From IMG/VR virus record IMGVR_UViG_3300028800_002449: DNA of 64,000 nucleotides. The stretch is one strand, 5' to 3'. This stretch comes from a virus. The notes beneath the pieces are model-generated. The model saw only the letters and a list, made by a program, of their open reading frames with translations. It was not told the origin of the DNA and did not search any database. Below are positions 5,449 through 58,521 of this stretch, in pieces. Made by a program: the position numbers and the translations under genes. The stretch's first letter is position 1. Each line of letters begins with the position of its first letter.

Positions 5449-5481
5449 GTCTGCTCTCCCGGTACCAGGGGGTTCAGCGCT

Positions 5482-6374: not shown

Positions 6375-6386
6375 GGTCTTCCCTTT

Positions 6387-27527: not shown

Positions 27528-27767
27528 TCAGTCGGTGACCGTGAAACTGTATCGCCACGTGTGGTACCCGCTACAGTCTTCGCACAGAGAGACTGGGATC
27601 GACCCTATCTGGTTCAACCAAGTCGCGAACATCGACGTCATCTTGATCGCGTCGAGCGCATCCTGCTTCGTCTCGTAGCGCTCCGGCCTGTCACAAGGCT
27701 TCGCCAATCGCGATCGAAGCCGTGCCGTCGCCAGCGGCGCAAGAAGCAGGATCGGGAGCCAGATCAT
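27528..27767 (-). CDS. Small secreted protein, about 79 aa
   Basis: Internal Met MIWLPILLLAPLATA signal-peptide-like. Confidence 0.35.
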   Translation of the reverse strand: MIWLPILLLAPLATARLRSRLAKPCDRPERYETKQDALDAIKMTSMFATWLNQIGSIPVSLCEDCSGYHTWRYSFTVTD

Positions 27768-29137
27768 CCGATGCCTTTTTCGCCCGGCCCGTGATGGTCG
27801 GGCTTGATCGCGATCAGGTTCGCGTAGACGTACGAGATGTCGTTCTCCTCGTACCACTTCGACGGGAACGTCGTGTAGAGGTGGACCTCCTGGAAGCACA
27901 CCGTCTTGTTGCGGATGTACCGCGCCTGCTCGCGCCGCGTGAAGTACCAGAACGCGTTCTGATTCCAGTAGCTCTGGTGGGTCGGATCCTGGAAGGCCCC
28001 GCGGCCGTCCGTCGAGGGCGTGCAGGACAGCAGCCACCCGCCGGGGCGGAGGCAGCGCCAGATCTCCGACATCGTGTGGGCCTTGTCCGGCAGATGCTCC
28101 AGGAAGTCGCTCGCCCGGAAGGCAGCCACGCTCCCGTCCTCCCACGGCCATCGCTCACGCAGGTCGGCGATGACGTCGACCTTCACGGCATTTTTGCCGT
28201 CTTCGCCGTCGTCGAGATCTTCTTGGACCATGTCGACCGTCTTCCACCCCTGCCGGCCCACGATGGCCGAACCGAGGTCGTAGACGGGCATGCCGAGAAG
28301 CTCGGCTTCCCGAAGCACGAGACGCTCCAAGTACGCGCTCTGGAGGCTCCGCGTCAGGTCGTCGATCTCCTTGATGCTCTTCGACCACGTGTTGTCGCCG
28401 CTCACGCGATACAGGTAGAGCGGCAGCTCGATGTGCTTGAACTTCGACGTCAGGTACGTCCGGATCACCAGCTCGTGATCGTCGCAGAGCTTGTACTGAG
28501 GATTGTGACCCCCCACGGCCATGTACACGCTCCGCCGCCAGGCCCTCAGGTGGTTCGGCGCCCAGAAGATGAGGCTCACGCTCATCGCGCTCGGCGAGAA
28601 CGACCGGACGCACTCGTAGACGCCGGGTCGCGGTCCTTCTACGGAGTAGTCGTAGAAGCGGAACCCGTTCTTGATCCAGCTCGGGCGGACGTCTGGATGA
28701 CGGTACGTGATCGTCCCCTGATCGAAAGGCTGGTCGGGACCGCTGGCGTCGTCGAAGTCGGCATAGTCGGAGTAGACGAAGCCGACATCAGGATCTGCTT
28801 CGAACGCTTTCGAGACCTCGGCCAGCGCCGTCGGTGTCAGCAGGTCATCATGATCAAGCTCCAGGACGACCTCTCCCGCAGCATCGGCGAAGGCCGTCTT
28901 CTTGCGCGAGCCCACGCCCTCGAAGACGCTGTAGTCGAGGACGACGCGCACGCGAGGATCTCCCGCCGTCATCTGCGCGACCTCGTTCGCACGCGTCTGC
29001 ACGCGCGTCCTGCCGCCCGTCTTGTCGTTGACGGTCACGATCCATTCGAAGTCGACATGGGTCTGAGCGAGGAGCGAAAGCCATGCCTCGCGGAGCCATT
29101 GCGTGTCGTGGGTCGGCGTGATGACGGAGATCTTCAT
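27764..29137 (-). CDS. Bifunctional GT2 glycosyltransferase / class I SAM methyltransferase
   Basis: N-terminus MKISVITPTHD...DFEWIVTVND...LELDHDD (GT-A DxD). C-terminus FLEHLPDKAHTMSEIWRCLRPGGWLL (methyltransferase post-I motifs). Confidence 0.7.
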   Translation of the reverse strand: MKISVITPTHDTQWLREAWLSLLAQTHVDFEWIVTVNDKTGGRTRVQTRANEVAQMTAGDPRVRVVLDYSVFEGVGSRKKTAFADAAGEVVLELDHDDLLTPTALAEVSKAFEADPDVGFVYSDYADFDDASGPDQPFDQGTITYRHPDVRPSWIKNGFRFYDYSVEGPRPGVYECVRSFSPSAMSVSLIFWAPNHLRAWRRSVYMAVGGHNPQYKLCDDHELVIRTYLTSKFKHIELPLYLYRVSGDNTWSKSIKEIDDLTRSLQSAYLERLVLREAELLGMPVYDLGSAIVGRQGWKTVDMVQEDLDDGEDGKNAVKVDVIADLRERWPWEDGSVAAFRASDFLEHLPDKAHTMSEIWRCLRPGGWLLSCTPSTDGRGAFQDPTHQSYWNQNAFWYFTRREQARYIRNKTVCFQEVHLYTTFPSKWYEENDISYVYANLIAIKPDHHGPGEKGIG

Positions 29138-30072
29138 GGAGCCTTGCCTTCCAAGAACGAGTCGATCTTCTTCGACCACTCATCATGCGATTCGACCTGC
29201 TTCAAGAACTCGCAGATCCGCGTCGAGAGCCAGAGCGTGTAGAGGTTGACCTTGTTGCTCTTGACGTCCTCGATGAAGCTCTTGACGAACAGCTGCAAGG
29301 CTTGCGGCCGGTCGTCGACGATCCTCCTGCGAGGGAGCTTGCAGTGGACGACTCCTCCGACCTCTTCATAGACGTACTCACCACCCTCCTCCGTCTTGAC
29401 GGTCAACTTCTTGGACTCCGCCTCTTCGGAACCGTTGCCGACGGACATCTCGAAAGAGGCCTCGCCGAAGGTGCCTTCGATGAAGCGATAGTCGCCACCG
29501 TCACGCTCGGTCTTCTGCACCGACGAGATGCTGTAGGCCTGATCGCCCAGCAGATCGAACAGGAACGCGACGGCGTGAGGACCGTAGTCCCAAAGCCCCG
29601 GGTAGGACCGATAGGGACCTCGGCCGTAGAATTCGATGGAGATGCGCTTGATCTTCGCCTTCTGCGACTCCTGCTTGATCTTGTGGTATTGGGGCGACCA
29701 GAGCCGGACGTAGTCGACGACCGTCGGCACGAGTGGAGGAAGGTCGCCAATCGACGACAGCTTGAGCGGCTTCGTCAGCATCGTGGGGATCGCCAGGGTC
29801 TTGCACGTCTCGTAGAAGGACAACGTTTCTTCAGGCGGCGCCGTGCAGACGATCGCGTCGACCATCTTCGCGTTCGCCTCGAACAGGAGGTCCTGCAACG
29901 AGACCAGGTAGCCCATCCCCGGCGCACGCTCCGTGCTCATCGGGCTGCGCACATGGAAGAGGACCTCGGCCTCGAACGCCCTGAAGACGCTCGCGACGAG
30001 CTGACCCCACCTGCCGGGCCCTACCCAGCCCAACCTGAACGGCCTCGCCTGCTTCGTCACGTTCATGGCCAC
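29134..30072 (-). CDS. Gfo/Idh/MocA-family NAD(P)-dependent oxidoreductase
   Basis: LGWVGPGRWGQ Rossmann motif at the N-terminus; about 310 aa. Confidence 0.6.
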   Translation of the reverse strand: MAMNVTKQARPFRLGWVGPGRWGQLVASVFRAFEAEVLFHVRSPMSTERAPGMGYLVSLQDLLFEANAKMVDAIVCTAPPEETLSFYETCKTLAIPTMLTKPLKLSSIGDLPPLVPTVVDYVRLWSPQYHKIKQESQKAKIKRISIEFYGRGPYRSYPGLWDYGPHAVAFLFDLLGDQAYSISSVQKTERDGGDYRFIEGTFGEASFEMSVGNGSEEAESKKLTVKTEEGGEYVYEEVGGVVHCKLPRRRIVDDRPQALQLFVKSFIEDVKSNKVNLYTLWLSTRICEFLKQVESHDEWSKKIDSFLEGKAP

Positions 30073-31325
30073 ATGCTCGAAATGGGGTGGACGAAGATCG
30101 GCACGGGAAGGGGCTGACCGTTCTTGTCGGTCACCTTGCCGTCACGCCACTTCGCGATGATGGAGTCCGCAAAGTTCCACGCATACATGATGCACACGTC
30201 GGGCGCCTTCTCGATGCCGGTCGGCGCGACGATCGGCACGTGCTGACCGGGAGTCAGCCTGCCGATCTTGAGGGGCGCGTCCTCGATCACGTAGTCGACC
30301 GGAGGCAGGTTCATGGCGTAGGTCAACGTCGTCAACTTGGCGGGCGCGCCGTAGCCGCAGACGACCTTGCCTTGGCCCCGATAGCTGAAGATCCTGTTCC
30401 GAAGGACGTTCCCCTCGGCGACGATGTTCCGCTTCAAGAGGCGCCATGGCAGGAGGCTGTCGTGGACGACGCTCTCGTCGATCAGGAGCGATGAGATCCG
30501 GCTGGTGAAATTCTTCCCGATCGGTTTCGATCGAGGAGAGGCGAAGACACGGATCGAGCCTCGACCGACCTGTTCGGACGACCACTGCGCGTCGACGACG
30601 CTCATGCCGAGGCTGTCGAGCACGAGCATCAACGGACCCAACGTGTGGTACGCGAAGTGCTCGTGATAGATCGTGTCGAAGGCCATGTGCTCGAACATGT
30701 CCATGAGATAGGACACTTCGAACACGAACATACCCTCGTCAGCGAGGAGCGCTTTCACGCCTTCAAGGATGTCGTAGATGTCCTCGGCGTGCGCGAGGAC
30801 GTTGTTCGCGACGACGAGGTTGGCCGGGCCGCGGGCCGCTGCGATCTCCTCTCCCATCTTCTTCGAGAAGAATCCGATCAACGTCTCGACGGCTGCATCC
30901 TTCGCGATGTTCTCTGCCGGATCGACGCCGAGAACCCGTCCGACGCCCAGCTCCTTGAAGGCCTTCAGCATCGTCCCGTCGTTCGAGCCGATCTCGACGA
31001 CGAAGCCTTGTCCGGGCTCCCCGAGGACGTCGAACCTCTCGACGACGTCTTTCGCGTACCTCGCGAAGTGCTGGACGGTCACGGGCGACGTGCCCGTCGC
31101 ATAGAGGTAGTGCTTGAAGAGACGCTTCTGGTCGACAACGACGCTCGTCTGGACGTGCTTGCAGTGCTCACATCTCAAGAGAGCCAAGGGGAAGACGTCT
31201 TGCTCGGGAACGAGATACCGATCTCCTGTCGGGTACTCGTTCGCGAGCGGGGTCATGCCGAGGTCGAGCACCTTCGTCAGGCCCTCGCGAGCGCAAAGGC
31301 CGCACTTCACCCTGACCTTGTGCGC
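30063..31325 (-). CDS. Sugar C-methyltransferase (TylC3/NovU-like: zinc-ribbon + class I MTase + C-terminal domain)
   Basis: CGLCAREG...CEHCKH zinc-ribbon, VVEIGSNDGT motif I, paralog of 34693..35952. Confidence 0.65.
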   Translation of the reverse strand, partial: AHKVRVKCGLCAREGLTKVLDLGMTPLANEYPTGDRYLVPEQDVFPLALLRCEHCKHVQTSVVVDQKRLFKHYLYATGTSPVTVQHFARYAKDVVERFDVLGEPGQGFVVEIGSNDGTMLKAFKELGVGRVLGVDPAENIAKDAAVETLIGFFSKKMGEEIAAARGPANLVVANNVLAHAEDIYDILEGVKALLADEGMFVFEVSYLMDMFEHMAFDTIYHEHFAYHTLGPLMLVLDSLGMSVVDAQWSSEQVGRGSIRVFASPRSKPIGKNFTSRISSLLIDESVVHDSLLPWRLLKRNIVAEGNVLRNRIFSYRGQGKVVCGYGAPAKLTTLTYAMNLPPVDYVIEDAPLKIGRLTPGQHVPIVAPTGIEKAPDVCIMYAWNFADSIIAKWRDGKVTDKNGQPLPVPIFVHPISSMWP

Positions 31326-31327
31326 TC

Positions 31328-31846
31328 CTACTCCCACGTCGTCCTCAGGACCGGCTCGCCGGACGCGTCGAACTCGACCGTCACGAGCTTCTTCCTCACG
31401 AGGTCGGCCTCGTGGTGCTCCTTGTCGCGCACGTTGTGGGAGATCACGAGGAGGACAGTGTCCTCGTTGAAGAAGGACGCGTGCTCGACCATCGGCGGCG
31501 TGAACATAAGCTCGCCCTTCTTGTACACGCGCATCTTCGGACCGTTCGGCTCGATCACCGGAGCCTCGTCGACGGGACGCCAAAAGTACGTCATCATCCC
31601 CTCGACGACGTACATGTAGTGCCAATCCGTCTTGTGGTAGTGGTTCGAGCGCAGGGCGTTCTTCTTCGAGTGGATGATCTCCACGCCCGACGGCCGAGAC
31701 ATCGGCGCATGATGGAACACGAGGTTCAAGATCGCGCCAGCGTCGTTCTTGAACACGTCGTCGACGGGCACGGTCGGATCTTCGGGGTAGTTGCCCATCT
31801 CGACGGCCATGTTGTACTCACGACCCGTCAGCGTCTTCGAAATCAT
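31328..31846 (-). CDS. Cupin-fold sugar 3,4-ketoisomerase/epimerase-like protein (FdtA/WxcM-like)
   Basis: HYHKTDWHYMYVVEG...FTPPMVEHA cupin core; internal Met MISKTLTG. Confidence 0.55.
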   Translation of the reverse strand: MISKTLTGREYNMAVEMGNYPEDPTVPVDDVFKNDAGAILNLVFHHAPMSRPSGVEIIHSKKNALRSNHYHKTDWHYMYVVEGMMTYFWRPVDEAPVIEPNGPKMRVYKKGELMFTPPMVEHASFFNEDTVLLVISHNVRDKEHHEADLVRKKLVTVEFDASGEPVLRTTWE

Positions 31847-32082
31847 CGCGTCCTCCAAGCCTCTTCCAGGTGTTCCTTGAACCTCGGCCATTTCTTCTTG
31901 AGAGCCATCTGCTTGCTTCCGGGCATCAGCCTCAACGCCTTCAAGGCCGCCTCGGCCGTCTTGTGCTGGCAGATCCAGAGCCCCGCGACCTCGGCGTCCG
32001 TCAGGGCGGAGAACTGCTGCTTGCCAGACGTCACCAGGCCGTCGACGGCCAGATAGGCAGCCCTCAGATCTTCCGCCTTCAC
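31843..32082 (-). CDS. Hypothetical protein, about 79 aa, GTG start
   Basis: GTG follows the stop of the upstream micro-ORF. Confidence 0.3.
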   Translation of the reverse strand: MKAEDLRAAYLAVDGLVTSGKQQFSALTDAEVAGLWICQHKTAEAALKALRLMPGSKQMALKKKWPRFKEHLEEAWRTR

Positions 32083-32222
32083 AGGGCCATCCAATGGGAC
32101 GGCGTAGGGTCCCAGAACGCCTCGCCGATGACGACTTCGTCCACGGGACACTGGAAGACTTCGCAGCGGCAGTGCTTCTGATAGTAGCCACAGCCTCGGC
32201 ACGGCGGGAAGAAGGCCGTCAT
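32079..32222 (-). CDS. Cys-rich micro-protein, about 47 aa
   Basis: MTAFFPPCRGCGYYQKHCRCEVFQC. Confidence 0.3.
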   Translation of the reverse strand: MTAFFPPCRGCGYYQKHCRCEVFQCPVDEVVIGEAFWDPTPSHWMAL

Positions 32223-32245
32223 CAACGTGACGAACGTCTTGAAGC

Positions 32246-34684
32246 TCACGTGGTCCTCTCGTTGATGAGGCTCTCCCAGAGGACGGCCATCTTCTGTCGA
32301 GTGAAGCCGGCAGAGAAACCTCTCGCGCCGCTGCGCACCGTGTTCGCGAACTCGTCGTTCTTCAGACCGGCGACGATCGCCTCCACCCACTTGCCCCGCT
32401 GCTCGTCAGGCTTGCCGGGGATCATGTAGGCCGCTCCCGAGTAGACCTCGGGCAGGGCATCGACGCCTGCCACGATCGGGACGCAGCCCGCGGCGCACGC
32501 GTCCATGATCGAGACCGAGAAGCCTTCCGTGAACCAGATCGGATCGCAGGTGTACGCCATCACGCGCGTCGCGAGAAGCTCCTTCGCCATCGTCTTCGAC
32601 GGCACGGGACCGATGAGGTAGACACCGTTCTCGCCGTCGCGTCCGTACTCGTCGAGCGACCTGCCGATGGCCGTCGCGCGCGCCTTGTGGATGCTGACGT
32701 CCGTGTGGTCGCTCGCCATGATGGAGTCGTACCAGGGCTGGAAGCGGTAGTAGATCCGCAGGTTGGCTTCAGGGACCTGCTTCTTGATGTCGCCGAACAT
32801 CTCCAGGATGTGATGCAGACCGCGATCTGGAGAGGAGCAGTAGGCGATGCTCCCGGGACGACGTTCGACGACGTTCGCGAAGAACTCGGCGTTGAACGAC
32901 AGCGGGACGACGACGAACTTCTCGTTGTCGATGTTCCACGATGTCGACAGGTAACGCGCGAGCGTGTGCGACGGGCAGGCGTAGACGTCGACGTATTCGT
33001 TGAAGTCAGGCTTGCAGAACGAGAAGTCGTTCAGCCACATCGCGCAGATCTTGAGCTTGTCCTTCGGCATCTCGCGGAGGACGTCCGGCTCGTTGATCGA
33101 GATGTACGCATCGTACGTCTCGTCGGGGCGGGCCAGATCGAAGCTGTAGACGTTCGCGCCCGCTAGCTTCGGGTGGTTCAAGAAGTTCCTGATGGACTCG
33201 CAGAAGGCGTCCACCTGGTGACCCCTTTCGGCCAGGCCCCAGACGATGTTGAAGAAGTTCGAACCCGTCCCCGTCAGCAGACCCTCGTCGTAGAGCGTGT
33301 CGATGTCGTAGACGCCGTGGATCGACGACGACAGCTTGCCCATGACGACGGCCACGCGCAGCTTGCGGCTGATCGACTTCACTTTTTCGACGCTCGTAGT
33401 CTGGTTCATTGTCGTCCTCGGGTGGACGAGGGTCTTCGTCGGCTTCGAATCGACTGGTTCTATGCTTTCAACTTCTTCGGGGATCTCCAAGAACCCGTCT
33501 TTCCGGCCGAAAACGTAGTCGTCGATCGTCGTGGGCATGTTCGCAAAGTCGTGCGTCCGACCGCGCTTTTTCAGGTTCTTCGTGAGGAGCATCTCCCATA
33601 GGTCGGCCACGAACGGTCGCTCGAAGAACTTCGAAAAGGTCTTGGCGCGCGACGTGACCGACTCGTGCCACTGGGGGAAAGTCATCGCACGCACGATCGC
33701 GTCGACCCAGGCCTCCCTGCTCTCGGAGGGCTTGCCGGGGATCACATGCACGACGCCCTTGTAGATGTCTCCGATCGCGTCTGCGTCGGAGATGATCGGC
33801 AGAGCGCCGGCAGCACACGCATCCATGATCGAAACCGAGAAGCCTTCGGTGAAGGACATCGGCTCGCACGTGTAGGGCAGGACAGCGCTCGTTCGAAGAA
33901 GCCGAGCCATCTCCTTGTTCGGGACGGCGTCCATGAGGAAGACGCCGTTCTCACCCTTGGTGCCGTAGCGCCTGAAGCACTCGTGGATGTAGCGGGCCCT
34001 CTGGCCCGTCTTCGACATGTCTTCCTTGAATGTCTCGTACCAGGGCTCGAAGCGGTAGCAGACACGCAGGACGGCGTCCGGGACCTTCTTCCTCACGTCC
34101 GGCCAGATCTCCAGCAGGCGATGCAGGCCCCTGTCGGGCGAGCTGCTCCAAACGGCGCTGTGAGGCTCACGAACCTCGCTCCCCAGGTCCTTGAAGAGGT
34201 CGGGCTCGATGGAGTTCGGGATCCAAGTGATCCGATTCGAGTGGATGCCAGCCAGATCTTGGAGATGGATCATCTGCACGGGCGAGAGCCCGACGGTGAC
34301 GTCCACCTGGTCGTACCAACCGTCTCGGCAGTTGCCGAAGTCGTTGTACTGGTGATGGAGGTACCTCATGCCCTTCGCGTCTTTCGACAGCCGACGGAAC
34401 TGATCGGGCTCGTTCAGGCTCACGTACGCGTCCGAGCCCGGCTCGATCTGACTTCCCTCGTCTATCTTGACGACGCGCGCGCCGCCCAAGACGTCACACT
34501 TCTCCATCGCGCTCGTGAAGTCGCCCTCAACGGTCACGTCATGGCCACGCTCGGCAAGACCGCGAACGACGTTGAAGAAGCTCGACTCCGAACCGGTGAT
34601 GGCTCGGGCACGGAAGAGCTTCTCCACGTCGATCTGACCGTGGAGGTAGGTCGAGAACTTGCCTATGATGAACGTGAGCTTCAT
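32246..34684 (-). CDS. Tandem double GT4 (glycosyl transferase group 1) glycosyltransferase, about 810 aa
   Basis: Two repeats, each containing FFN(V/I)VxGLAERGH...EGFSVSIMDACAAG. Confidence 0.7.
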   Translation of the reverse strand: MKLTFIIGKFSTYLHGQIDVEKLFRARAITGSESSFFNVVRGLAERGHDVTVEGDFTSAMEKCDVLGGARVVKIDEGSQIEPGSDAYVSLNEPDQFRRLSKDAKGMRYLHHQYNDFGNCRDGWYDQVDVTVGLSPVQMIHLQDLAGIHSNRITWIPNSIEPDLFKDLGSEVREPHSAVWSSSPDRGLHRLLEIWPDVRKKVPDAVLRVCYRFEPWYETFKEDMSKTGQRARYIHECFRRYGTKGENGVFLMDAVPNKEMARLLRTSAVLPYTCEPMSFTEGFSVSIMDACAAGALPIISDADAIGDIYKGVVHVIPGKPSESREAWVDAIVRAMTFPQWHESVTSRAKTFSKFFERPFVADLWEMLLTKNLKKRGRTHDFANMPTTIDDYVFGRKDGFLEIPEEVESIEPVDSKPTKTLVHPRTTMNQTTSVEKVKSISRKLRVAVVMGKLSSSIHGVYDIDTLYDEGLLTGTGSNFFNIVWGLAERGHQVDAFCESIRNFLNHPKLAGANVYSFDLARPDETYDAYISINEPDVLREMPKDKLKICAMWLNDFSFCKPDFNEYVDVYACPSHTLARYLSTSWNIDNEKFVVVPLSFNAEFFANVVERRPGSIAYCSSPDRGLHHILEMFGDIKKQVPEANLRIYYRFQPWYDSIMASDHTDVSIHKARATAIGRSLDEYGRDGENGVYLIGPVPSKTMAKELLATRVMAYTCDPIWFTEGFSVSIMDACAAGCVPIVAGVDALPEVYSGAAYMIPGKPDEQRGKWVEAIVAGLKNDEFANTVRSGARGFSAGFTRQKMAVLWESLINERTT

Positions 34685-34692
34685 GTCACGAA

Positions 34693-35952: not shown

Positions 35953-35962
35953 TCCGAACCTC

Positions 35963-36700
35963 CTAGAAGCTCTCTATGAGCGGCAGATCCCACGGACCCT
36001 TCGACGTATCGACTTGCGATCCCCACTTGGACTTCAAGAGATCCAAGCGTTCGATCCTCGCCCAGTCGGCGCACTTGTCCTGCACCGAATACATGGTGTG
36101 CTCGACTTCAACCGAGAGCCGGCGAGGCTTGAACCCCGCAGCTTTCACCCTCATGGCCCAGTCCCACATCATGCCGATGCCCCCGGGCCCGTACGCAGCA
36201 TCGAGGACGCCTGCGGCCTCGATGCATGCACTGCTGATGAGGAACAACCAGCCCATCCCGATGTCCGAGATCTTCTCGACGGATGGAACGACGTAGCCCA
36301 TCCCGGGCGAGAGCGTGAGGGCATCTACGCCCGCTTGGAGGAAGTTCGGCGGCAACGGGTTTTCCCCACCCATGAGAACGACGAAATCGCCGCCGTGATC
36401 GTGCAGGCCCATGTTCCAGACGCGGCAGAGACCCTGGAGCGTCGGCGAGAACTGGAACGAGAACCTGACGTCTTCGTTCCTCTGCGCGTACTCCCACATC
36501 TCCGGCAGCGGGCAGTCGATGATCACCAGGCACGAGAAGTCTCCATACGTTTGAGCCTTCAAGGAGTCGAGGCAGTCCTTCCAGCGCGGCTCCTGCGTCA
36601 TCGCGACGACGATCGAGACCTTCGCCTCCGGCCTCACGCGGCTCCACAGGGGATGGTCACCCCATCCTTCCTCCGCCCATTCTTCCTTGCGTCTCATCAC
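35963..36700 (-). CDS. GT-A fold glycosyltransferase (GT2-like)
   Basis: VSIVVAMTQEP...LDSLKAQTYGDFSCLVIIDC. Confidence 0.55.
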   Translation of the reverse strand: MMRRKEEWAEEGWGDHPLWSRVRPEAKVSIVVAMTQEPRWKDCLDSLKAQTYGDFSCLVIIDCPLPEMWEYAQRNEDVRFSFQFSPTLQGLCRVWNMGLHDHGGDFVVLMGGENPLPPNFLQAGVDALTLSPGMGYVVPSVEKISDIGMGWLFLISSACIEAAGVLDAAYGPGGIGMMWDWAMRVKAAGFKPRRLSVEVEHTMYSVQDKCADWARIERLDLLKSKWGSQVDTSKGPWDLPLIESF

Positions 36701-37761: not shown

Positions 37762-37772
37762 GATCTCTCCTA

Positions 37773-40379
37773 TCAGATGTCGCCGGCCAGCGGCATCCGC
37801 TTGTCAGACTGTCGTGATAGCTCTGCTTCGAAGGCCGTCATCCACTCTCTGGCGACGCTGTCCCAGCCGCACTTGTCGAGGGCATACTCTCGTCCGGCGT
37901 CGGCGTACTTGCCTCGCTCGACGTCGTCCTTGAGCAGCAAGACGACCTGCTTCACGAACTCCCTGAAGTAGGCGCCCGTCGTCGTCGGCGGCTGGAGCAG
38001 CAGACCGTGCTTCACCGTCTCCGTGAGAGCAGCAAGATAGGTGCTCACCGGAACGCATCCAGCGGCCTGGGCTTCAATCGCCGTGATGCAGTGGGTTTCA
38101 GTGAACATCGTCGGGTAGGTCCACACCTTCGATTCGAGGAAGGCATCGGCCAGCACCTTCTGACCGACGCGACCGTGGTACTTGACCAGTCCCTCGGCGA
38201 CCCTCTGGTCGAGGACGGTCTGGATGTCGAGAGCCCTCTGCTTGAAGACGAGGTCGCCGCTCGACTCCGCCATCGAGAGCCACGTCGTGAACCCGTAGTA
38301 GATGTTCAGCTCGACGTCGGGGACCTGCTCCTTGATGGCAGGGAGCATCTCAAGCAGCTTCTCCAGGCCTCGGTCTGGCGAAGACGAGTAGATGATCTTG
38401 TTGCCGCGCTTGACGTTCTGTCCCTTGAACCTCGACACGTCGATCCCGTTCCTCGTCACGACGATCGTCGACGGATGGAGCTGCGGATAGCAGGCGAGGA
38501 AGAAGTTCTTGTGCCATCCCGACAGGCAGAAGATCTTGTCGTAGCGCATGAGCGCGTTGTTGAGGTTCGCCGAGGTCGCTCCGACGTTGACGTCGTGGAC
38601 CCACAGGAAGCTCACCTTCGCCGGCCAGTTCAGAAGGGACGCCTCTGCCTGTCGTGAGACGACGAGGACGTCGCACTCGAACTCCGAAACCTTCTGCGTG
38701 GCGACGTGGTACGGCACGTACCTCACGCCGTCGAAGATCTCCTCCCGAGGGCAGTCCGAAACGACGGTCACCTGGTTGCCGGCTCGGACCAGCTCGCGCG
38801 CCATGCAGACGGCGGCAGTCTCCGACCCACCGATGCCCCCGTCGTCGATCGAGCGCGGCGTCCACTTCTCCCAGGCGAGGCCGGTCCAGATGACGATCTT
38901 GAGACGGTTGCCGACCGCCTGGAACAGCGGCTCCGCGTTGCCCGCGGCGATCTGCTCCTTCGTGATCGCCCTAGCCTCGTCGATCTTGACGTCGTTCATC
39001 GAGCCCTTCGGCAGACCGTCGAGGAAAGTCAACGCGTCTTCGTAGTGCCCGAGCTGCATGTACTGCTTCCAGAAGTGGATCGCGAACGACGTCATCACGT
39101 CGATCGGAAGGGCCACAGGCGGGGACCTCAAATCCTCGTCCCGCGAGAACGTCACGGCCAGCTCGCTCGGCGGCTCCACCTTCGGTGCCAACGCCTTTTC
39201 AGCCACTTCCTTGTTCCCCTTCAGGTGCGGGTCATCGGCGTTCCACTTGAGCCCCTCGACGCAAGCGTCGAGAGCTTCCTTGTGGCGACGAAGCTCGATG
39301 AGGGCTGCCGAATAATAGACGTACGGTCGGTAGTAGCGATCGAGAGGGTCGTGCATGAGCATCGACTTCTGCTTCTCGGACTTCGCCCTGACTTCGAGAC
39401 CCTTCTCCGACCACTCGGCGCACTTGCCGTAGTCGCGCTTGAAGTAGGCGACGCGGGCAGCGCCGAAGTAGCCCTCCGGCCGAAAGTCGCTCTCGACGAC
39501 GGCCTGCGCATACTCGGAGAAGGCGAGGTCGTACTTGCCCTGACCCTCGAACATCAGCCCGACCGTGACGTGTGCCACCGAGCGCTCCTCGTCCCACCCG
39601 GAGCGCGTGCAATACTTCTGGTAGGCGGCGATGGACTTCTCGGGCCAGACGAACCTCGTCTCCATTCCGAGGTAGAAAAGCATCCTGGCGTCGACGGTGT
39701 CCCAGTCCTTGTCCTTGAAGTAGTGCAGCAGCACCTTCATGTTGCGAGCCGAGATCTCCGGCTTGATCTTGTACTCGCTCCGCTGGTGCTTGACGGAGAC
39801 CTGCTCGTAGAATCGCGCCGATCCGATCGGGCCGACCACCTCGTGGATCGGCTGGAGCCAGCTGCCGACGCCGCGTCGAAGGATGCGCTCGCGCGTGAGC
39901 CTGCACGTGACCTTGCCCGCGTGGTCGTGCTCGTAGTCGTAGTTCAGGAGCGCCGTGTCGACGGCGTCCTTCTTCATGTCGTCGAGGACGTCCTGGATCG
40001 ACTCGCCGCCGACGAGGAGGTCATCCGAGTCGATCCACATGACGTAGTCGCTCGTGACCTCCTTCCAGCCGTGTTGCCTCGCGCCTCCGAAGTCGGCCAG
40101 CATCCACTTCCCTGAAAAGGGGGGCGGCATCTCGACGTCCGTCCAAGACTCCTTCACGTCGAGGATGAAGGCGTCTGGATGGGTGTCCTTGTTGAAGTCG
40201 AGGATCCTGGCCTTCGGGCAGATCTCGCGGATGCGGTCCTTCGTCGCGTCGGTCGAGCCGGTGTCGACGACGATCACCTCGTCGAAGAACGGCGCGGCGG
40301 ACTCAAGGCACCTGCCGATGTACCTCTCGACGTTCCTCACGATCATCGCGAGCGCGATGGAAGTTCTGGTCGTCGGCAC
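37773..40379 (-). CDS. Multidomain glycosyltransferase (N-terminal GT2, TPR-like middle, C-terminal GT4), 868 aa
   Basis: IALAMIVRNVERYIGRCLES...VIVVDTGSTD...WIDSDD at the N-terminus. C-terminal ETHCITAIEAQAAGCVPV is GT4-like. GTG start. Confidence 0.7.
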   Translation of the reverse strand: MPTTRTSIALAMIVRNVERYIGRCLESAAPFFDEVIVVDTGSTDATKDRIREICPKARILDFNKDTHPDAFILDVKESWTDVEMPPPFSGKWMLADFGGARQHGWKEVTSDYVMWIDSDDLLVGGESIQDVLDDMKKDAVDTALLNYDYEHDHAGKVTCRLTRERILRRGVGSWLQPIHEVVGPIGSARFYEQVSVKHQRSEYKIKPEISARNMKVLLHYFKDKDWDTVDARMLFYLGMETRFVWPEKSIAAYQKYCTRSGWDEERSVAHVTVGLMFEGQGKYDLAFSEYAQAVVESDFRPEGYFGAARVAYFKRDYGKCAEWSEKGLEVRAKSEKQKSMLMHDPLDRYYRPYVYYSAALIELRRHKEALDACVEGLKWNADDPHLKGNKEVAEKALAPKVEPPSELAVTFSRDEDLRSPPVALPIDVMTSFAIHFWKQYMQLGHYEDALTFLDGLPKGSMNDVKIDEARAITKEQIAAGNAEPLFQAVGNRLKIVIWTGLAWEKWTPRSIDDGGIGGSETAAVCMARELVRAGNQVTVVSDCPREEIFDGVRYVPYHVATQKVSEFECDVLVVSRQAEASLLNWPAKVSFLWVHDVNVGATSANLNNALMRYDKIFCLSGWHKNFFLACYPQLHPSTIVVTRNGIDVSRFKGQNVKRGNKIIYSSSPDRGLEKLLEMLPAIKEQVPDVELNIYYGFTTWLSMAESSGDLVFKQRALDIQTVLDQRVAEGLVKYHGRVGQKVLADAFLESKVWTYPTMFTETHCITAIEAQAAGCVPVSTYLAALTETVKHGLLLQPPTTTGAYFREFVKQVVLLLKDDVERGKYADAGREYALDKCGWDSVAREWMTAFEAELSRQSDKRMPLAGDI

Positions 40380-40394
40380 GAAGACGACAGTGAC

Positions 40395-40432
40395 AGAGAT
40401 GGACTTTCAATCGCAAGATTTTGGGAGAGGGA
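40395..40432 (-). promoter_or_regulatory. Conserved element type 2 (coding strand CAAAATCTTGCGATTG...GTCGTCTTC) immediately upstream of the large GT gene
   Basis: One of three near-identical roughly 36-nt elements (40395, 41765, 43405). Plus strand reads TTTCAATCGCAAGATTTTGGGAG. Confidence 0.5.
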
Positions 40433-40441
40433 GCGCGTCGC

Positions 40442-40696
40442 CTATTCCTGCGAGTCGTCGATCGGAGCGACCTTCTTTTCGCCGTGCGACACCAGCTTCA
40501 AAAGCTGGACGATGGGCAGACCTGCGTGCTTCTCACACACGTGGAAGGGCGTCTTTCCGAACATGATCGAGATCAAGATCCCATCGATCCCGATCGCCGG
40601 CTCGCTGCAAACGTGCCGTCCGAAGAGCTTCCGCCCAGCCTCGTCCGGGACGTCGCAGACGGTCTTCAAGATGATCATGTTCTTCGCACGCCCCAT
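40442..40696 (-). CDS. Hypothetical protein, 84 aa
   Basis: ORF. Confidence 0.35.
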   Translation of the reverse strand: MGRAKNMIILKTVCDVPDEAGRKLFGRHVCSEPAIGIDGILISIMFGKTPFHVCEKHAGLPIVQLLKLVSHGEKKVAPIDDSQE

Positions 40697-40708
40697 CCCA
40701 GGGCGCCG

Positions 40709-41749
40709 TCAGAACGCGGAGAGCTTGCCGGTCTTGCGATGGGCCACGGTGACCTCGCTCGCCTGACGCTGCTTCTCCCACCAGGCGCGATTCTCCTGGT
40801 ACCAGCGGATCGTCCGCGGCAGGCCCCCGAACAGCGTCGTCTTCGGCTTCCATCCGAGCAGCTCCCACGACTTGGTCGTCGACGAGATGTGCCTGTCGAC
40901 CTGTCCGGGGCGAGCCTCGACGTGCTCGATGAGGTGACGAGGCTTCCCGAGGAAGTCGACGACGGCCTCGGCGATGTCGTTGATCGAGGTGTCGGTGCCC
41001 GTGCCGAGGTTGATCGTCTGGCCGCAGAGGCGCTTGTCGCCGACGACCCCTCCGTTGAGGGCCGAGAGGACGGCGTCGCAGGTGTCCTCGACGTAGACCC
41101 AGTCGCGCGTCATGAGACCGTTCCCGTGGACGCGCAGCGGCTCGTCGCAGATGGCCTGCGTGATGAACCGAGGAACGACCTTCTCCAGGTGCTGCTTCGG
41201 ACCGTAGTTGTTGAACGGCCGGATGAGCACGAGCGGGATGTCGTGGCAGATCCTGTAGGCGTAGACGAGCCTGTCGGCGCCGGCCTTCGCCGCCGCGTAC
41301 GGCGTGCAGGGGTTGAGCGGATGGTCCTCTGTCATAGGCGCCGACTCGGCCGTCCCGTAGACCTCCGACGTCGAGATGTGGACGAACTTCTCGATCCGGG
41401 ACCGGTTCTTGGCGACGGCGTTCGCGATCGTGTGCGTGCCCATGACGTCGGTCTCGAAGAAGACCGTGTCGTCGGCGATCGAGCGCGTCACGTGAGACTC
41501 CGCCGCGAAGTGGACGACTGCGTCGACCTTCGAGACGAGCGCGTTCACGACCTCCGGATCGCGGATGTTCCCTCTGACGAGGGAGAACCTCTTCGACTTC
41601 GCGATGCGCTCCGGGATGTTCTCCGGGTTCGACGCGTACGTGAAGACGTCGAGCACCACGATCTCGTCATCCGGGTGTCGATCGAAGACCTTCTCGACGA
41701 AGTTGCTGCCGATGAAGCCGGCACCGCCCGTGACCAGGATCTTCCTCAT
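40709..41749 (-). CDS. rmlB: dTDP-glucose 4,6-dehydratase (RmlB-type SDR)
   Basis: ILVTGGAGFIGSNF, HFAAESHVTRS, YAAAKAGAD (YxxxK). Confidence 0.85.
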   Translation of the reverse strand: MRKILVTGGAGFIGSNFVEKVFDRHPDDEIVVLDVFTYASNPENIPERIAKSKRFSLVRGNIRDPEVVNALVSKVDAVVHFAAESHVTRSIADDTVFFETDVMGTHTIANAVAKNRSRIEKFVHISTSEVYGTAESAPMTEDHPLNPCTPYAAAKAGADRLVYAYRICHDIPLVLIRPFNNYGPKQHLEKVVPRFITQAICDEPLRVHGNGLMTRDWVYVEDTCDAVLSALNGGVVGDKRLCGQTINLGTGTDTSINDIAEAVVDFLGKPRHLIEHVEARPGQVDRHISSTTKSWELLGWKPKTTLFGGLPRTIRWYQENRAWWEKQRQASEVTVAHRKTGKLSAF

Positions 41750-41764
41750 GGAAGACGAGGATGA

Positions 41765-41800
41765 CGAGATTGAGATCCAATCACAAGATTTTGAAAGCCT
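41765..41800 (-). promoter_or_regulatory. Conserved element type 2 (CAAAATCTTGTGATTGGATCTCAATCTCGTCATCCT) ending 8 nt before the rmlB ATG
   Basis: Near-identical to the element at 43405. Contains a TTGTGA -35-like box, a CATCCT -10-like box 17 nt downstream, and a GATTG-N5-CAATC inverted repeat. Confidence 0.5.
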
Positions 41801-42209
41801 AGGGCGCGCCGCCCGTCGCCCAGGCCTCGTCGTCCGGAACGTTCAGAAGCTCCGGCGTCTGGTGCCAGAGGGAAGGATGCGCATGAGTCCCATCGACGGC
41901 GTCGCCGTCGTTGAGCACGTTGATCGACGGTGAGACCATCCAGTTGCTCGTGCCGGGAGCATGCTCGAAGGTGCTCGCCTGAGGCTTCGAGAGGCCCCAG
42001 GTCCGGCCTCCCGCTCCGTTTTCCGTGTAGGCGCCGCCCGGGTTGACGGGGACGCAGAAGACTTCCGGCTGACCATCGCTGTCGCGAAGGACGTTGAACC
42101 AGAGCTGCCACCATCTGGCGCTTCCCGAGCCTGAGGCTCGATGGACGGTGCATTCATTGACCGCCAGATCCTCGATGAGCGCGTGAGAACGATACGTGAG
42201 CGCGCTCAT
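41799..42209 (-). CDS. Hypothetical protein, about 136 aa
   Basis: Internal Met MSALTYRSHAL of ORF 41799..42293(-). Confidence 0.35.
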   Translation of the reverse strand: MSALTYRSHALIEDLAVNECTVHRASGSGSARWWQLWFNVLRDSDGQPEVFCVPVNPGGAYTENGAGGRTWGLSKPQASTFEHAPGTSNWMVSPSINVLNDGDAVDGTHAHPSLWHQTPELLNVPDDEAWATGGAP

Positions 42210-42787
42210 CTGGAGACCGCCCGATCGAACCAGTGCTGGAAGTGCGACGCGTCGTTGGTGTTCGCCCCATGGACGAAGTACGTGTAGAGCCAAGGCTCAC
42301 AAAGCTGCACCACGGACATCCCTCCGAGGTCGACCTCGTTCCTCGGGGTCGGCGGGAACCTTCCGGGTTTCGCCAGGAGCGAAAGTCGCTTGGCGAGCAA
42401 CGTCGGCTCCCACTGGCGAGGCTCGGAGACGACTGCGAGGCCCCGCTCCGGCCAGTGCAGGAGGACCCTCTCCAGCAGGCATGCGTCGGCCTGCGGAACG
42501 GTCGCGAGGACCTCGACCTGCCGCTTGAGACGGTCGGGATGATGGACGTCGTCGTCGTCCCAGAGGCAGACGAGATCTCCCTTCGCGACGCCGAGACCGA
42601 TGCCACGCATCTGGTTGAGGGTCGTGCCGACCTTCGCCTTGTAGAAGGGCCTCTTCAAGGCGGACACGTCGTCGAGCGTGACGATGATGAGTTCGCGGTC
42701 CTTGTAGGACTGGGCGTCGAAGGCGGCGATGGCACGCTCGGCGAGGGCCTGTCTCTTGGCCTGGGTGATCATGAGGCAGGAGATCAT
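42206..42787 (-). CDS. Small GT-A-like glycosyltransferase, 193 aa
   Basis: LIIVTLDD...LWDDDDVHHPDRL (DxD). Confidence 0.5.
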   Translation of the reverse strand: MISCLMITQAKRQALAERAIAAFDAQSYKDRELIIVTLDDVSALKRPFYKAKVGTTLNQMRGIGLGVAKGDLVCLWDDDDVHHPDRLKRQVEVLATVPQADACLLERVLLHWPERGLAVVSEPRQWEPTLLAKRLSLLAKPGRFPPTPRNEVDLGGMSVVQLCEPWLYTYFVHGANTNDASHFQHWFDRAVSR

Positions 42788-42821
42788 AGTGCCCTTGGTG
42801 CCTTTCGGTTCGACGACGCGA

Positions 42822-43424
42822 TCATGTGGTCTTCAGAACGATTTTGCTTGGGTCGATCTTACTTGGCTCGATCTTCTTCGGGAAGGCGATCTTGGTCAAG
42901 GTCGCGACCATGTCTTGGCAGGCTTCCTTGTAGTTCGTGAAGGCATACATCTGATAGTGCTCATTCCGCGAGGTCAGATCAGGCCTCGGCGTATAACCCC
43001 ATGTCGCTGTAAAGTTACATGAGTAGGAGTCGTTGTGCGGAGCGTTTACCTCACGCCACTCCACGTTCAAGTAGTAGTACCAGAACTCGGAAACGGGCGG
43101 CCACTTGTGGGTCAGATCTCCATACGCACGAGCGGCTGACCAGTGTGGAGTGATGATATTCGTCTGTCCGCCCATCTTGAGCACGCGATACAGCTCGTTC
43201 ACGAAGTGAACGCGTTCGACGCTGTCGAAGTGTTCGACGACATGGCTCGCGTTGACCGCTTCGACAGAGTCATTTTCCCAGGGCCACGTCTTCGTCAGGT
43301 CCACGACCTGATCCACGCCGGGAAACGGACGGCTGTCGACGCCGATCCAGTCGGCAGCGATCTTGTTCTTCCCGCATCCGAGGTCGAGCTTCAAGGGAGG
43401 AAGGATGACGTGATTGAAAATCAA
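42822..43424 (-). CDS. Class I SAM-dependent methyltransferase
   Basis: LDLGCGKNK motif I, SVEAVNASHVVEHF, KMGGQ. The listed TTG start lies inside the type 2 element, so the true start may be the downstream TTG (MKLDLGCG). Confidence 0.65.
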   Translation of the reverse strand: MIFNHVILPPLKLDLGCGKNKIAADWIGVDSRPFPGVDQVVDLTKTWPWENDSVEAVNASHVVEHFDSVERVHFVNELYRVLKMGGQTNIITPHWSAARAYGDLTHKWPPVSEFWYYYLNVEWREVNAPHNDSYSCNFTATWGYTPRPDLTSRNEHYQMYAFTNYKEACQDMVATLTKIAFPKKIEPSKIDPSKIVLKTT

Positions 43425-43440
43425 TCACAAGATTTTGGAA
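43405..43440 (-). promoter_or_regulatory. Conserved element type 2 (CAAAATCTTGTGATTGATTTTCAATCACGTCATCCT) at the methyltransferase start
   Basis: Third copy; TGATTGA-N3-TCAATCA inverted repeat. Confidence 0.5.
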
Positions 43441-43574
43441 GAAGGCGACAGGTCACAGGTCTAGAAGCGGTCTGCGGCCCCATCAGAAATTTTATAAACC
43501 CCACCCGAAAGTTCTGCTGTCCGAAGGACGCGTCTGGACTATCGCCTGTCGCCTTCTGCCCTTCCGCGCTCTCT

Positions 43575-44306
43575 TCACCACATCATGTCGGGCGGCCCGA
43601 AGTCGCCCTTGAGATCGTAGTGGCCGACCTTGACCGAGCAGTCGATCGCACAGCGAAAGCCATGCTTGCGGGCGTCCATCCAGAAGTACAGATCTTGGGT
43701 CGCTATCCCGTCGTTCCGCTGAGTCTTGAACCAAGGCTTGCGCAATCGCGCGTCCTTGAACATCGACATCCGCCAGAGGTTGAAGCCCATCCCTGTACCA
43801 CAGCATTCGATGAGACCACCCTGAGGATCAGGCAGCTGCGGCCTGAAGTTCAAGACGGGGTCTTTCGGATCGCCCCAAATCTGAGGTACGCCGCCTGGTC
43901 CCTTCGTGAAGTAGAGGCCGCCGATGCACGACAGCTCAGGGTGGGCCTCCATCTCCTCAAGAAGCTTCAACACGCCGTTCGGTGGAGGCGCGTTGTCGTG
44001 CTCGATCGTGAGGATGTACTCCCACTGCGACAGATTTGGCTCCATCAGGATGTTCTCGACCGCCGCCGAGTATGCCTCGCCCACCTCCATGCCCTGAGCC
44101 AAGATCCTCACGACGCCGTTGTTTGGAGCGAACGCCAGGTTCCAGTGCGACAGCGCCACCTTCGCGGGGATAGTGTCGGCCGCAGGGATGATGACGACGA
44201 TCCGCTGCTGCTTCCAAGCGCCCGTGCGCATCATCCGCGTCGTCGTTCCTTCCAGGTCGCCGTTGTGCGTTCCTGAGAGGTCCTGCATGATCAGTTGAGG
44301 CTTCAC
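43575..44306 (-). CDS. GT-A fold glycosyltransferase, about 240 aa
   Basis: IVVIIPAAD...; DxD-like EHD; alternative ATG start at 44288. Confidence 0.55.
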   Translation of the reverse strand: MKPQLIMQDLSGTHNGDLEGTTTRMMRTGAWKQQRIVVIIPAADTIPAKVALSHWNLAFAPNNGVVRILAQGMEVGEAYSAAVENILMEPNLSQWEYILTIEHDNAPPPNGVLKLLEEMEAHPELSCIGGLYFTKGPGGVPQIWGDPKDPVLNFRPQLPDPQGGLIECCGTGMGFNLWRMSMFKDARLRKPWFKTQRNDGIATQDLYFWMDARKHGFRCAIDCSVKVGHYDLKGDFGPPDMMW

Positions 44307-58431: not shown

Positions 58432-58521
58432 GCCGTAGGGCACGATCAGAACTCCTGGTGAGTCAGGCTGGTCAGAGCAGGAAGGACGGTGACGAGTGCG
58501 ATCGAGTTGGACGGCAGAGTT

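Follow-up and report, generated by a model that had tools for sequence, protein, structure and literature searches.

Glycans on the structural proteins of bacterial viruses have been described in mycobacteriophages (Freeman 2023, Cell Host Microbe, as cited in PMC12619734 and PMC12801897), in which, as far as these citing accounts go, a few phage glycosyltransferases (GTs) act in the cytoplasm on the C-termini of the phage's own capsid and tail-tube subunits, the GT genes being found in or next to the structural region. In the literature found, the large GT sets of big phages are by default ascribed to modification of the host surface or of DNA. To our knowledge, mycobacteriophages are the only phages in which virion glycosylation has been demonstrated experimentally. 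Here, a stretch of 64,000 nucleotides (the window) of the IMG/VR virus record IMGVR_UViG_3300028800_002449 is described, in which about twenty genes for making, transferring and methylating sugars surround two giant genes of collagen-like fibre proteins. Gene content and neighbourhood make it quite likely that the products of this block glycosylate virion proteins, and reasonably probable that the collagen-like fibres are a main acceptor.

The locus differs from what is described of mycobacteriophages in that, instead of a few GTs, a block of about twenty genes, known from the genes alone, is arranged around collagen-like fibres, with its own branch of deoxythymidine diphosphate (dTDP)-sugar synthesis (RmlB, a cupin and two C-methyltransferases), multidomain GTs and several methyltransferases. 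The sugars of BclA, the collagen-like filament protein of the Bacillus anthracis/cereus exosporium, are provided by the rhamnose and anthrose gene set rmlACBD and antABCD, of which only RmlB is common to the window. BclA is a bacterial spore protein, but it resembles the fibres considered here in having Pro at X and Thr at Y of the G-X-Y triplets (GPT), in drawing on a deoxyhexose pathway from dTDP-glucose and in carrying methylated sugars in its glycan (PMC8968730, PMC9614988, PMC7793302). Mimivirus and the Megavirinae also are large viruses with collagen-like proteins, their own nucleotide-sugar pathways and GTs, and their fibrils bear methylated and rare sugars (PMC9614988). They are, however, viruses of eukaryotes; the Mimivirus collagen glucosyltransferase L230 acts on hydroxylysine, whereas the collagens of the window are almost without Lys and no 2OG-Fe(II) oxygenase (hydroxylase) domain is present in the window, and the Mimivirus sugars are viosamine, bacillosamine and rhamnose, as compared with the C-methyl-branched deoxyhexose predicted here. 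Finally, the profile of GT237, a 237-aa protein of the block, has its best match among solved structures in A197 of Sulfolobus turreted icosahedral virus (STIV) (E 0.004 over about 95 residues, a marginal similarity; SpsA is matched at 0.035). A197 is a small soluble viral GT-A protein thought to be responsible, within the cytoplasm, for glycosylation of the STIV capsid protein (PMC10551542); STIV, however, infects archaea, and the acceptor is putative in both cases. Literature searches found no description of collagen- or fibre-linked GT-methyltransferase cassettes, or of a C-methyl-deoxysugar branch, in phages.

Three enzyme families of the block are found elsewhere adjacent to, and on the same strand as, genes of virion structural proteins, namely: (i) a GT2-methyltransferase fusion (GT2-MT) next to collagen genes; (ii) the pair formed by GT237 and a 190-aa methyltransferase (GT237-MT) next to Ser/Thr-rich fibres; and (iii) a three-part enzyme in which tetratricopeptide repeats (TPR) separate a GT2 from a GT4 unit (GT2-TPR-GT4), next to capsid genes. 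Such a pattern is predicted by modification directed at proteins, and not by remodelling of the host surface or by DNA modification; as virion structural genes at large accompany these families, collagen is not their defining partner. An earlier note, made from the letters of the window alone, had proposed a fibre-glycosylation system built on a sugar and GT island at 27,764-44,306. This proposal holds to the extent that the enzymes do follow virion structural genes; what has to be amended is the place of collagen, which is a likely acceptor at this locus rather than the feature that defines the system.

For GT2-MT, an alignment-based scan of IMG/VR yielded at least 550 relatives, and open reading frames (ORFs) with collagen repeats were counted within 10 kb in the best 80 loci (36-43% identity), with the GT237 locus set described below as the control. 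Collagen was found at 33 of the 80 GT2-MT loci and at 1 of the 80 GT237 loci (odds ratio 55, p = 8e-11). When at least 5 kb of flanking sequence is available, collagen lies upstream of GT2-MT in 24 of 45 cases (23 on the same strand, usually at a distance of 0.3-5 kb) and downstream in 2 of 53. The fraction of loci with collagen is about half after de-replication (25/49, 13/25 and 8/13 clusters at 90, 70 and 60% identity, respectively) and, because GT2-MT loci are low in GC, the collagen ORFs are not an artefact of composition. At one of these loci, the collagens are encoded at the end of a structural block, by what are typical tail-fibre genes. The Y position of the GT2-MT-linked collagens is Gln in 54% and Thr in 15% of the triplets; GT2-MT is associated with collagen fibres as such and not with an abundance of Thr.

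GT237 represents a family of 6131 clusters at 90% identity (995 at 50%), the 90% clusters being all unnamed and without Pfam domains. Its neighbourhood was counted in the 80 best IMG/VR loci (up to L082), which are 65-78% identical to the window protein on phage contigs that range from 40 kb to 400 kb (L003-L082), and all 80 encode, directly beside GT237, a counterpart of the 190-aa methyltransferase. The protein encoded upstream is variable, with 46 of 77 matching a profile made from the C-terminal region of the first collagen-like protein of the window (collagen-1); these upstream proteins are fibres rich in Ser, Thr, Asn and Gly, with repeats of about 42 aa that contain 'FSNSNGVSFG'. Near GT237, the FSNSNG motif was counted 129 times in the upstream sequence of the same strand, and not once downstream or on the opposite strand. 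In larger phages, the GT237-MT pair comes after big structural proteins, an immunoglobulin-like (Ig) protein and a GH140-like protein, and Ig proteins homologous to that of the window precede GT237 in L008 and L085. The GH140-like protein (Pfam Apiosidase and Collagen_bind_2) recurs in L084 (7637-9112), L085 (8519-9973) and L089 (2236-3537), either between the fibre genes and the GT237 gene or directly after a collagen gene, and is absent from the window.

That GT237 is itself a member of the GT-A family is moderately supported by its sequence. An acidic EDD/EHD motif is conserved (consensus 'EDD'), with E96 and D98 invariant, and 8 of 43 diverse members match Pfam GT2, at best at 6e-5. An AlphaFold2 (AF2) model from a shallow alignment reached a pLDDT of 56 and gave non-significant Foldseek matches with GT-A proteins at the top, the first being the GT-A domain of the collagen glycosyltransferase LH3 (E 0.02); it was not used.

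Scans of IMG/VR and of metagenomes with the single sequence of the 857-aa GT2-TPR-GT4 were empty, so that alignment-based scans were needed. In IMG/VR, these retrieved 37 loci, none with collagen, in which the enzyme is accompanied by genes of short-chain dehydrogenases/reductases (SDR) and GT2 proteins. A major head protein gene lies within 2.5 kb upstream on the same strand in 26 of the 30 loci with enough flanking sequence, PHROG confirmed the assignment in 8 of 8 proteins tested, and the GenBank entry MW202524 has the same succession of major head protein and GT2-TPR-GT4. In two groups of small phages (L175-L206 and MW202524), the enzyme is encoded one or two genes past the major head protein, often followed by SDR and GT2 genes. 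The arrangement suggests capsid glycosylation in these small phages, and invites the question of whether, also in the window, the virion proteins that are glycosylated are others than the collagens, such as the major capsid or tail-tube proteins, with the collagen genes as mere neighbours in a late structural region. The association of GT237-MT with non-collagen fibres and the capsid and tail-tube glycans known from mycobacteriophages (as cited in PMC12619734) point in the same direction. However, no capsid gene is found near the island in the window, the modification genes flank and interleave both collagen genes, GT2-MT is specifically enriched beside collagen genes, and three other loci (L089, L093 and L008) join these enzymes with collagen genes, which together make an acceptor set without the collagens unlikely. 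Glycosylation of further virion proteins is a close variant of glycosylation of the collagen fibres, and may also be true.

Metagenomes gave only two long GT2-TPR-GT4 loci, both with collagen genes. In L089 (about 30% identity) the order is collagen, the GH140-like protein, GT2-TPR-GT4, two GT4s, methyltransferases, SDRs, a Rossmann-like gene and a C-methyltransferase. L093, a metagenomic contig of 94.7 kb, has at least five collagen genes together with a GT2-TPR-sulfotransferase fusion and a separate sulfotransferase (4336-7027); these sulfotransferases hint at sulfated fibre glycans or sulfated fibres. Closer to the window, the JGI sister contig L083 (GT237 96% identical) keeps the C-terminus of the collagen, Ig protein, GT237, methyltransferase, GT2, RmlB and the rest in the same order, L088 (about 72% identity) retains the island through to the gene of a vault-like protein and stops before the fibre region, and L008 brings together GT2-MT, a collagen with the C-terminal domain, Ig protein, GT237 and its methyltransferase. 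The TPR block of the 857-aa enzyme could, in our own interpretation, serve the recognition of protein substrates, as in enzymes of the OGT or SunS type, a short SunS-family match being the sole hint in this sense.

The two collagen-like proteins themselves bear marks of this combination. Collagen-1 has a 125-aa N-terminal domain followed by 432 G-X-Y triplets; the '[10 protein letters not shown]' motif, present once, and a Ser/Thr-rich C-terminal domain of 300 aa complete it. X is Pro in 44% of the triplets, Y is Thr in 52% and Gln in 33%, GPT is the commonest triplet and only 9 of the 1351 residues of the collagen region are charged. Collagen-2 has a paralogous N-terminal domain (46% identical, E 2e-33), 133 G-X-Y triplets and a repeat-rich distal part of 830 aa. 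The shared N-terminal domain is presumably the one for attachment. The gene call for collagen-1 in the source assembly is of 1646 aa, starting 194 codons 3' of the ATG at 50794 (region 50213-50794), whereas the 1840-aa form adopted here is supported by the paralogous domain of collagen-2 and by an AAGG motif 5' of the ATG. No relatives of the N-terminal domain were found in IMG/VR or the protein database, probably in part because the source gene call omits it. The C-terminal domain of collagen-1 has no Pfam match and is homologous to the fibres upstream of GT237 elsewhere. Collagen-1 is a chimera of two fibre types, with a collagen stalk on one side and the FSNSNG motif and conserved C-terminal domain on the other, and both cassettes typical of those fibre types, GT2-MT and GT237-MT, are present at the locus, as they are in the smaller L008.

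The remaining genes of the block were largely read correctly by the earlier note: the described island is present, all on the minus strand, and includes RmlB, two TylC3-like C-methyltransferases, an FdtA-like cupin, the GTs, announced as at least seven (eight Pfam-supported GT domains in six proteins, with the GT-A-like GT237 as the ninth), and, for the three or four methyltransferases dependent on S-adenosylmethionine (SAM), the two C-methyltransferases and two Methyltransf_11 domains, one fused and one free. Three of the GT proteins are fusions (GT2-methyltransferase, GT4-GT4 and GT2-TPR-GT4), and the two halves of the 812-aa double GT4 derive from an internal duplication (39% identity). Other points need revision. 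The island had been placed upstream of the fibre module, but by direction of transcription it lies downstream of the collagen genes. The proposed limits do contain the genes listed; the module is, however, larger, with a weak GT-like gene at 51388-52053 and two Methyltransf_23 genes up to 58.4 kb. Modification genes are thus found on both sides of and between the collagen genes, which makes the functional block a co-oriented one of about 31 kb, from 27.8 to 58.4 kb. A third point concerns the protein at 29134-30066, taken for a Gfo/Idh oxidoreductase, an assignment that the searches do not confirm. It is a Rossmann oxidoreductase of uncertain family that best matches the 'putative oxidoreductase' 3c1a in PDB (over residues 3-210), without a Pfam GFO_IDH_MocA match at E<=0.01 and without similarity to the GFO_IDH_MocA protein of L087, neighbour of a bacterial homologue of the cupin; its own homologues are in L088 (58%) and L089 (28%).

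As for the sugar, RmlB is recognized by TIGR01181 with 332 bits, under the curated cut-off of 365. RmlA, RmlC and RmlD, of which the note had asked whether they are absent or supplied by the host, are not found in the window: Pfam NTP_transferase matches none of its minus-strand genes, dTDP_sugar_isom has no match in the window, and RmlD_sub_bind gives a secondary match on RmlB alone. The two C-methyltransferases have the architecture of TylC3/TcaB9, i.e. a Zn-binding N-domain, a SAM domain and a C-terminal Methyltransf_14 domain, and the 419-aa one aligns end to end with 4rv9 and 3ndi. They are only 27% identical to each other and may differ in the position methylated or in the intermediate used. 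The similarity to TylC3/TcaB9/KijD1 is strong, and the cupin shares the fold of FdtA/QdtA; those enzymes, however, serve actinomycete antibiotics or bacterial S-layer and O-antigen glycans, whereas here they are encoded in a phage beside fibre genes. The cupin is weak by sequence (Pfam Cupin_2 0.003; QdtA in PDB 0.64; WxcM-like by profile 0.066), and its AF2 model (pLDDT 91.4) gives Foldseek PDB ranks 1-24 led by QdtA, FdtD and FdtA (best matches at E 3e-7 to 1e-6), with E from 3e-7 to 3e-6 and target-normalised TM of 0.63-0.73. Discrimination is modest, RmlC, EvaD, WbcA and the CapF cupin trailing within about 10-fold in E-value. The N-H-Y-H motif (H69, H71) is invariant in 40 homologues and may correspond to the catalytic pair His49/His51 of FdtA. 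Neither a 2,3-dehydratase nor an aminotransferase is present, which makes a 2,6-dideoxy or amino sugar an improbable substrate; from the enzymes encoded, a C-methyl-branched 6-deoxyhexose can reasonably be predicted.

The closest cellular homologue of the cupin, in Lacunisphaera limnophila, is encoded directly upstream of a C-methyltransferase and near a GFO_IDH_MocA gene, within a gene cluster for a surface polysaccharide that also provides an ABC2 permease and, with Glycos_transf_4, an initiating enzyme. Because both homologues sit in that cluster, the sugar cassette was probably borrowed from bacterial surface-polysaccharide clusters, minus their membrane machinery. The same observation lends some weight to the idea that the block alters the lipopolysaccharide (LPS), capsule, S-layer glycan or exopolysaccharide of the host through the lipid carrier, flippase and export route of the latter, so that superinfection, or the sticking of progeny to debris, would be prevented. 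Enzymes with two GT domains also resemble polymerising O-antigen enzymes such as WbdA. Moreover, remodelling of the host surface is the usual reading of large sets of GTs and sugar epimerases in big cyanomyoviruses (PMC12801897). It nevertheless seems an improbable account of this locus. No phosphoglycosyl transferase, Wzx flippase, Wzy polymerase, ligase or ABC2 exporter is found in the window by Pfam, the sole ABC pair being of the importer type (BPD_transp_1); clear transmembrane segments are missing from all island proteins, with one marginal hydrophobic stretch (threshold 1.6) in each of two GTs; and no island GT comes near the cut-off of any curated bacterial LPS or capsule family of NCBIfam. 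Remodelling of the host surface also fails to predict the same-strand adjacency of three enzyme families to capsid and fibre genes, which extends to podovirus-like genomes of 40 kb.

DNA is the other classical target. Phage GTs are known for glucosylating it, and diverse glycans on 5-hydroxymethylcytosine have been described (bioRxiv 10.1101/2023.12.21.572611 and PMC9614988), so that the GTs might place sugars on hydroxymethylated bases for evasion of restriction, with the 333-aa product of 26029-27030, the gene that directly follows the island and has no family match, as a conceivable participant. A ThyX-like 'HKxxSxxxxSxR' motif is seen by eye in this protein, but assignment to ThyX is not supported, as no Pfam, NCBIfam or PDB match is found; it was also considered as a capsid protein, and is unrelated to the capsid proteins of small phages (hhalign probability 0.1%). 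No domain of a dCMP/dUMP hydroxymethylase, DNA cytosine C5-methyltransferase or TET/JBP dioxygenase is present in the window, i.e. no base-hydroxymethylating enzyme, and known DNA-glycosylation loci lack a C-methylation branch for a dTDP-6-deoxyhexose, a set of some ten GT domains and a linkage to genes of capsids and fibres; DNA hypermodification is accordingly a very remote prospect.

Glycosylation of virion proteins with the collagen fibres as a main acceptor has, in its turn, to face several objections. The case is built on gene content and neighbourhood, from which both the glycan on proteins and the virion location of the collagens are predicted, and searches of the window and of the 10 kb beyond it revealed no gene for a capsid, tail or terminase protein. 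The assignment as GTs of GT237 and of the 221-aa protein encoded between the collagen genes is weak, the latter having no Pfam, NCBIfam or PDB match. The Lacunisphaera homologues of the cupin and C-methyltransferase are encoded among surface-polysaccharide genes with a lipid-carrier transferase and an ABC2 exporter, and soluble GTs could in principle act on lipid-linked intermediates of the host. The dTDP-sugar part and GT2-TPR-GT4 are found in many phages without collagen. Co-occurrence of the island with collagen genes in related contigs, which the note had proposed as a check, is a matter of the part considered: it is seen in L083, in L089 and at the GT2-MT loci, while GT2-TPR-GT4 and GT237-MT are mostly without collagen, and the 37 collagen-free loci at which SDR and GT2 genes accompany GT2-TPR-GT4 belong to the kind that the note itself had named as speaking against its proposal. 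Last, Thr at Y in collagen-1 provides hundreds of possible O-acceptor sites, but cannot be taken as specific evidence of O-glycosylation: Thr at Y is normal in the collagens of prokaryotes, the majority of which are believed to carry no glycans (PMC8968730), and the GT2-MT-linked collagens mostly have Gln there. The BclA-style O-glycosylation on Thr suggested by the note is thus an analogy, not a result.

If glycosylation of the collagen fibres is nonetheless taken as the working model, the following sequence of events may be envisaged. Late in infection, soluble phage enzymes in the host cytoplasm would draw on the dTDP-glucose of the host, since no RmlA is encoded in the window. RmlB would convert it to dTDP-4-keto-6-deoxyglucose, the cupin would shift the keto group from C4 to C3, one or both TylC3-type enzymes would add a C-methyl group beside it, and the Rossmann enzyme would reduce the keto group to give the C-methyl-branched 6-deoxyhexose, although order of steps and product are those that best fit the enzyme set. 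Some nine or ten GT domains, several of them fused in pairs as in polymerising enzymes, would then assemble the glycan directly on phage structural proteins with no lipid carrier, and four or five further SAM methyltransferases would methylate the sugars, and possibly the protein. The likeliest acceptors would be the two giant collagen-like fibres within the block, and other virion proteins, such as the capsid, may serve too. Judging by the fused double GTs and the number of methyltransferases, the glycan is more likely to be repeating and methyl-capped than to be a single sugar. Acceptor, chemistry of the linkage, structure of the sugar and role of the coat (shielding, stability or adhesion to the host) are all to be understood as predictions of this model.

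A broader proposition, which can be put forward only tentatively, is that glycosylation of phage fibres and capsids independent of lipid carriers is widespread in environmental phages in the form of a few recurring enzyme-acceptor cassettes (GT2-MT with collagen, GT237-MT with FSNSNG fibres and GT2-TPR-GT4 with capsid), and that all three are combined here around chimeric collagens and with their own pathway to a C-methyl-branched 6-deoxyhexose, giving fibres coated with heavily methylated glycans. If the associations reflect function, sugar coats on fibres and capsids would be common in phages of soil and freshwater, given the breadth of the evidence (at least 550 GT2-MT viral loci, about 6,100 GT237 protein clusters and, in small phages, GT2-TPR-GT4 beside capsid genes). 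Consequences would be expected for recognition of the host, stability of the particle, its adhesion to surfaces and mucus and its recognition by immune systems, and the methylated glycan-coated fibres would be comparable to the fibrils of Mimivirus or the exosporium nap of Bacillus. Concrete enzyme-acceptor pairs are thereby offered, and GT237 stands for a large, strongly conserved family without name or Pfam model; the locus also suggests how a rare branched deoxysugar could be made enzymatically, and that recombinant bacterial collagens in glycosylated form might be of use as materials.

Table 1. Genes of the modification and fibre block and other features of the window, with the matches on which their assignment is based.
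Feature	Coordinates	Strand	Evidence
RtcB, RNA-repair type	8417..9679	-	1.6e-116
1002-aa protein with major-vault-protein domains	16413..19421	-	Pfam MVP_shoulder 3e-19, Vault_3 6e-11; no PHROG match
ATPase of ABC importer-type pair	20305..21414	-	
Permease of ABC importer-type pair	21123..22163	-	BPD_transp_1
333-aa protein, directly after the island	26029..27030	-	74% conserved in L088
Fused GT2 and Methyltransf_11 (GT2-MT), 457 aa	27764..29137	-	Pfam Glycos_transf_2 4.6e-11, Methyltransf_11 4.7e-7
NAD(P)-Rossmann oxidoreductase, 310 aa, candidate sugar ketoreductase	29134..30066	-	PDB 3c1a 3e-11; weak Pfam Rossmann match
Sugar C-methyltransferase 1, TylC3/TcaB9 type, 424 aa	30063..31337	-	Pfam Methyltransf_14 1.8e-22, Methyltransf_13 5.4e-14, Methyltransf_23 5.8e-12
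Cupin, 172 aa, FdtA/QdtA-like nucleotide-sugar 3,4-ketoisomerase candidate	31328..31846	-	AF2 model and Foldseek
79-aa ORF, no function assigned	31843..32082	-	Source-contig gene call; position conserved in L088
Double GT4, 812 aa, two tandem GT-B units	32246..34684	-	Pfam Glyco_trans_1_4, Glycos_transf_1, Glyco_transf_4
Sugar C-methyltransferase 2, 419 aa	34693..35952	-	Pfam Methyltransf_14 7.6e-52; PDB D-mycarose 3-C-methyltransferase 2.2e-54, TcaB9 3e-49
GT2, 244 aa	35963..36697	-	Pfam Glycos_transf_2 6.5e-6
GT2, 354 aa	36697..37761	-	Pfam Glycos_transf_2 3.2e-11
GT2-TPR-GT4 three-part glycosyltransferase, 857 aa	37773..40346	-	Pfam GT2 6.5e-15, weak TPR, GT4 families
84-aa ORF, no function assigned	40442..40696	-	Source gene call; 85% identical region in L083 (tblastn)
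RmlB dTDP-glucose 4,6-dehydratase, 346 aa	40709..41749	-	PDB 1r66 2.1e-71; TIGR01181 2.6e-99
136-aa ORF, no function assigned	41799..42209	-	Gene call; no Pfam/NCBIfam match
Small GT2, 193 aa	42206..42787	-	Pfam Glycos_transf_2 3.1e-6
Methyltransf_11 methyltransferase, 190 aa, constant partner of GT237	42822..43394	-	Pfam 9.9e-7
GT237, 237-aa GT-A-like glycosyltransferase	43575..44288	-	Family motif and weak GT2/A197 matches
Ig-like fibre-module protein, 307 aa	44349..45272	-	PHROG 3995 'tail protein' 1.3e-8; Ig_3 in L083 homologue
Collagen-like fibre protein 1, 1840 aa	45272..50794	-	Pfam Collagen 2.4e-167
131-aa ORF, no function assigned	50944..51339	-	High GC3; no family match
221-aa candidate GT-A-like protein (weak), between two collagen genes	51388..52053	-	PHROG 854 'glucosyltransferase' 1.2e-4; 'FEDD' motif
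Collagen-like fibre protein 2, 1449 aa	52062..56411	-	Pfam Collagen 3.3e-49
Methyltransf_23 methyltransferase, 173 aa	56499..57020	-	Pfam ~1e-6; gene call
Methyltransf_23 methyltransferase, 183 aa, similar to 56499..57020 by eye	57892..58443	-	Pfam 7.4e-7; gene call
tRNA-Gln (anticodon CUG)	58522..58598	-	
RlaP nucleotidyltransferase, RNA-repair type	58941..59990	-	PHROG 388, 3e-70
ThiF-family E1-like protein	60396..60977	-	

With regard to these assignments, PDB sequence searches gave no match for the 190-aa methyltransferase, NCBIfam provided no informative name for the island GTs or methyltransferases, and Pfam matches to Serglycin were discarded as artefacts of the GS linkers that joined the sequences in the scan. 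The window is part of a metagenomic contig of 260,244 bp (ENA assembly ERZ27245399, k141_2938905), with which its gene boundaries agree. Nearly all its genes are on the minus strand, close-packed and with high third-position GC, the GC content of the window being 61%. An uncultivated jumbo phage is the probable source: the block is flanked by genes of kinds seen in very large phages (RtcB, ParB-like, RlaP nucleotidyltransferase, DnaJ, ThiF, an ABC importer pair, a protein with an OmpA domain and one tRNA), and relatives of several window genes are found on IMG/VR viral contigs. A near-identity DNA search of positions 1-25,000 against GenBank phages returned only RtcB matches of 126-158 bp and no close cultured phage; RtcB is the sole stretch with DNA similarity to cultured phages, those of the Caulobacter phiCbK group (about 79% over 126 bp). 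Scans for promoters and terminators gave sites no more frequent than in shuffled sequence.

The tRNA-Gln is the only tRNA of the window and lies directly 5' of the methyltransferase and collagen genes, which encode very Gln-rich proteins; a role in translation of the collagens is unsupported, CAA making up 32% of the Gln codons in the collagen genes as compared with 10% elsewhere. The ABC pair is accompanied (region 20305-24231, minus strand) by a 600-aa protein that combines an N-terminal hydrophobic segment with an OmpA C-terminal peptidoglycan-binding domain. The 1002-aa vault-like protein has a 65% identical homologue in L088, and a homologue of the vault shell is unusual for a phage.

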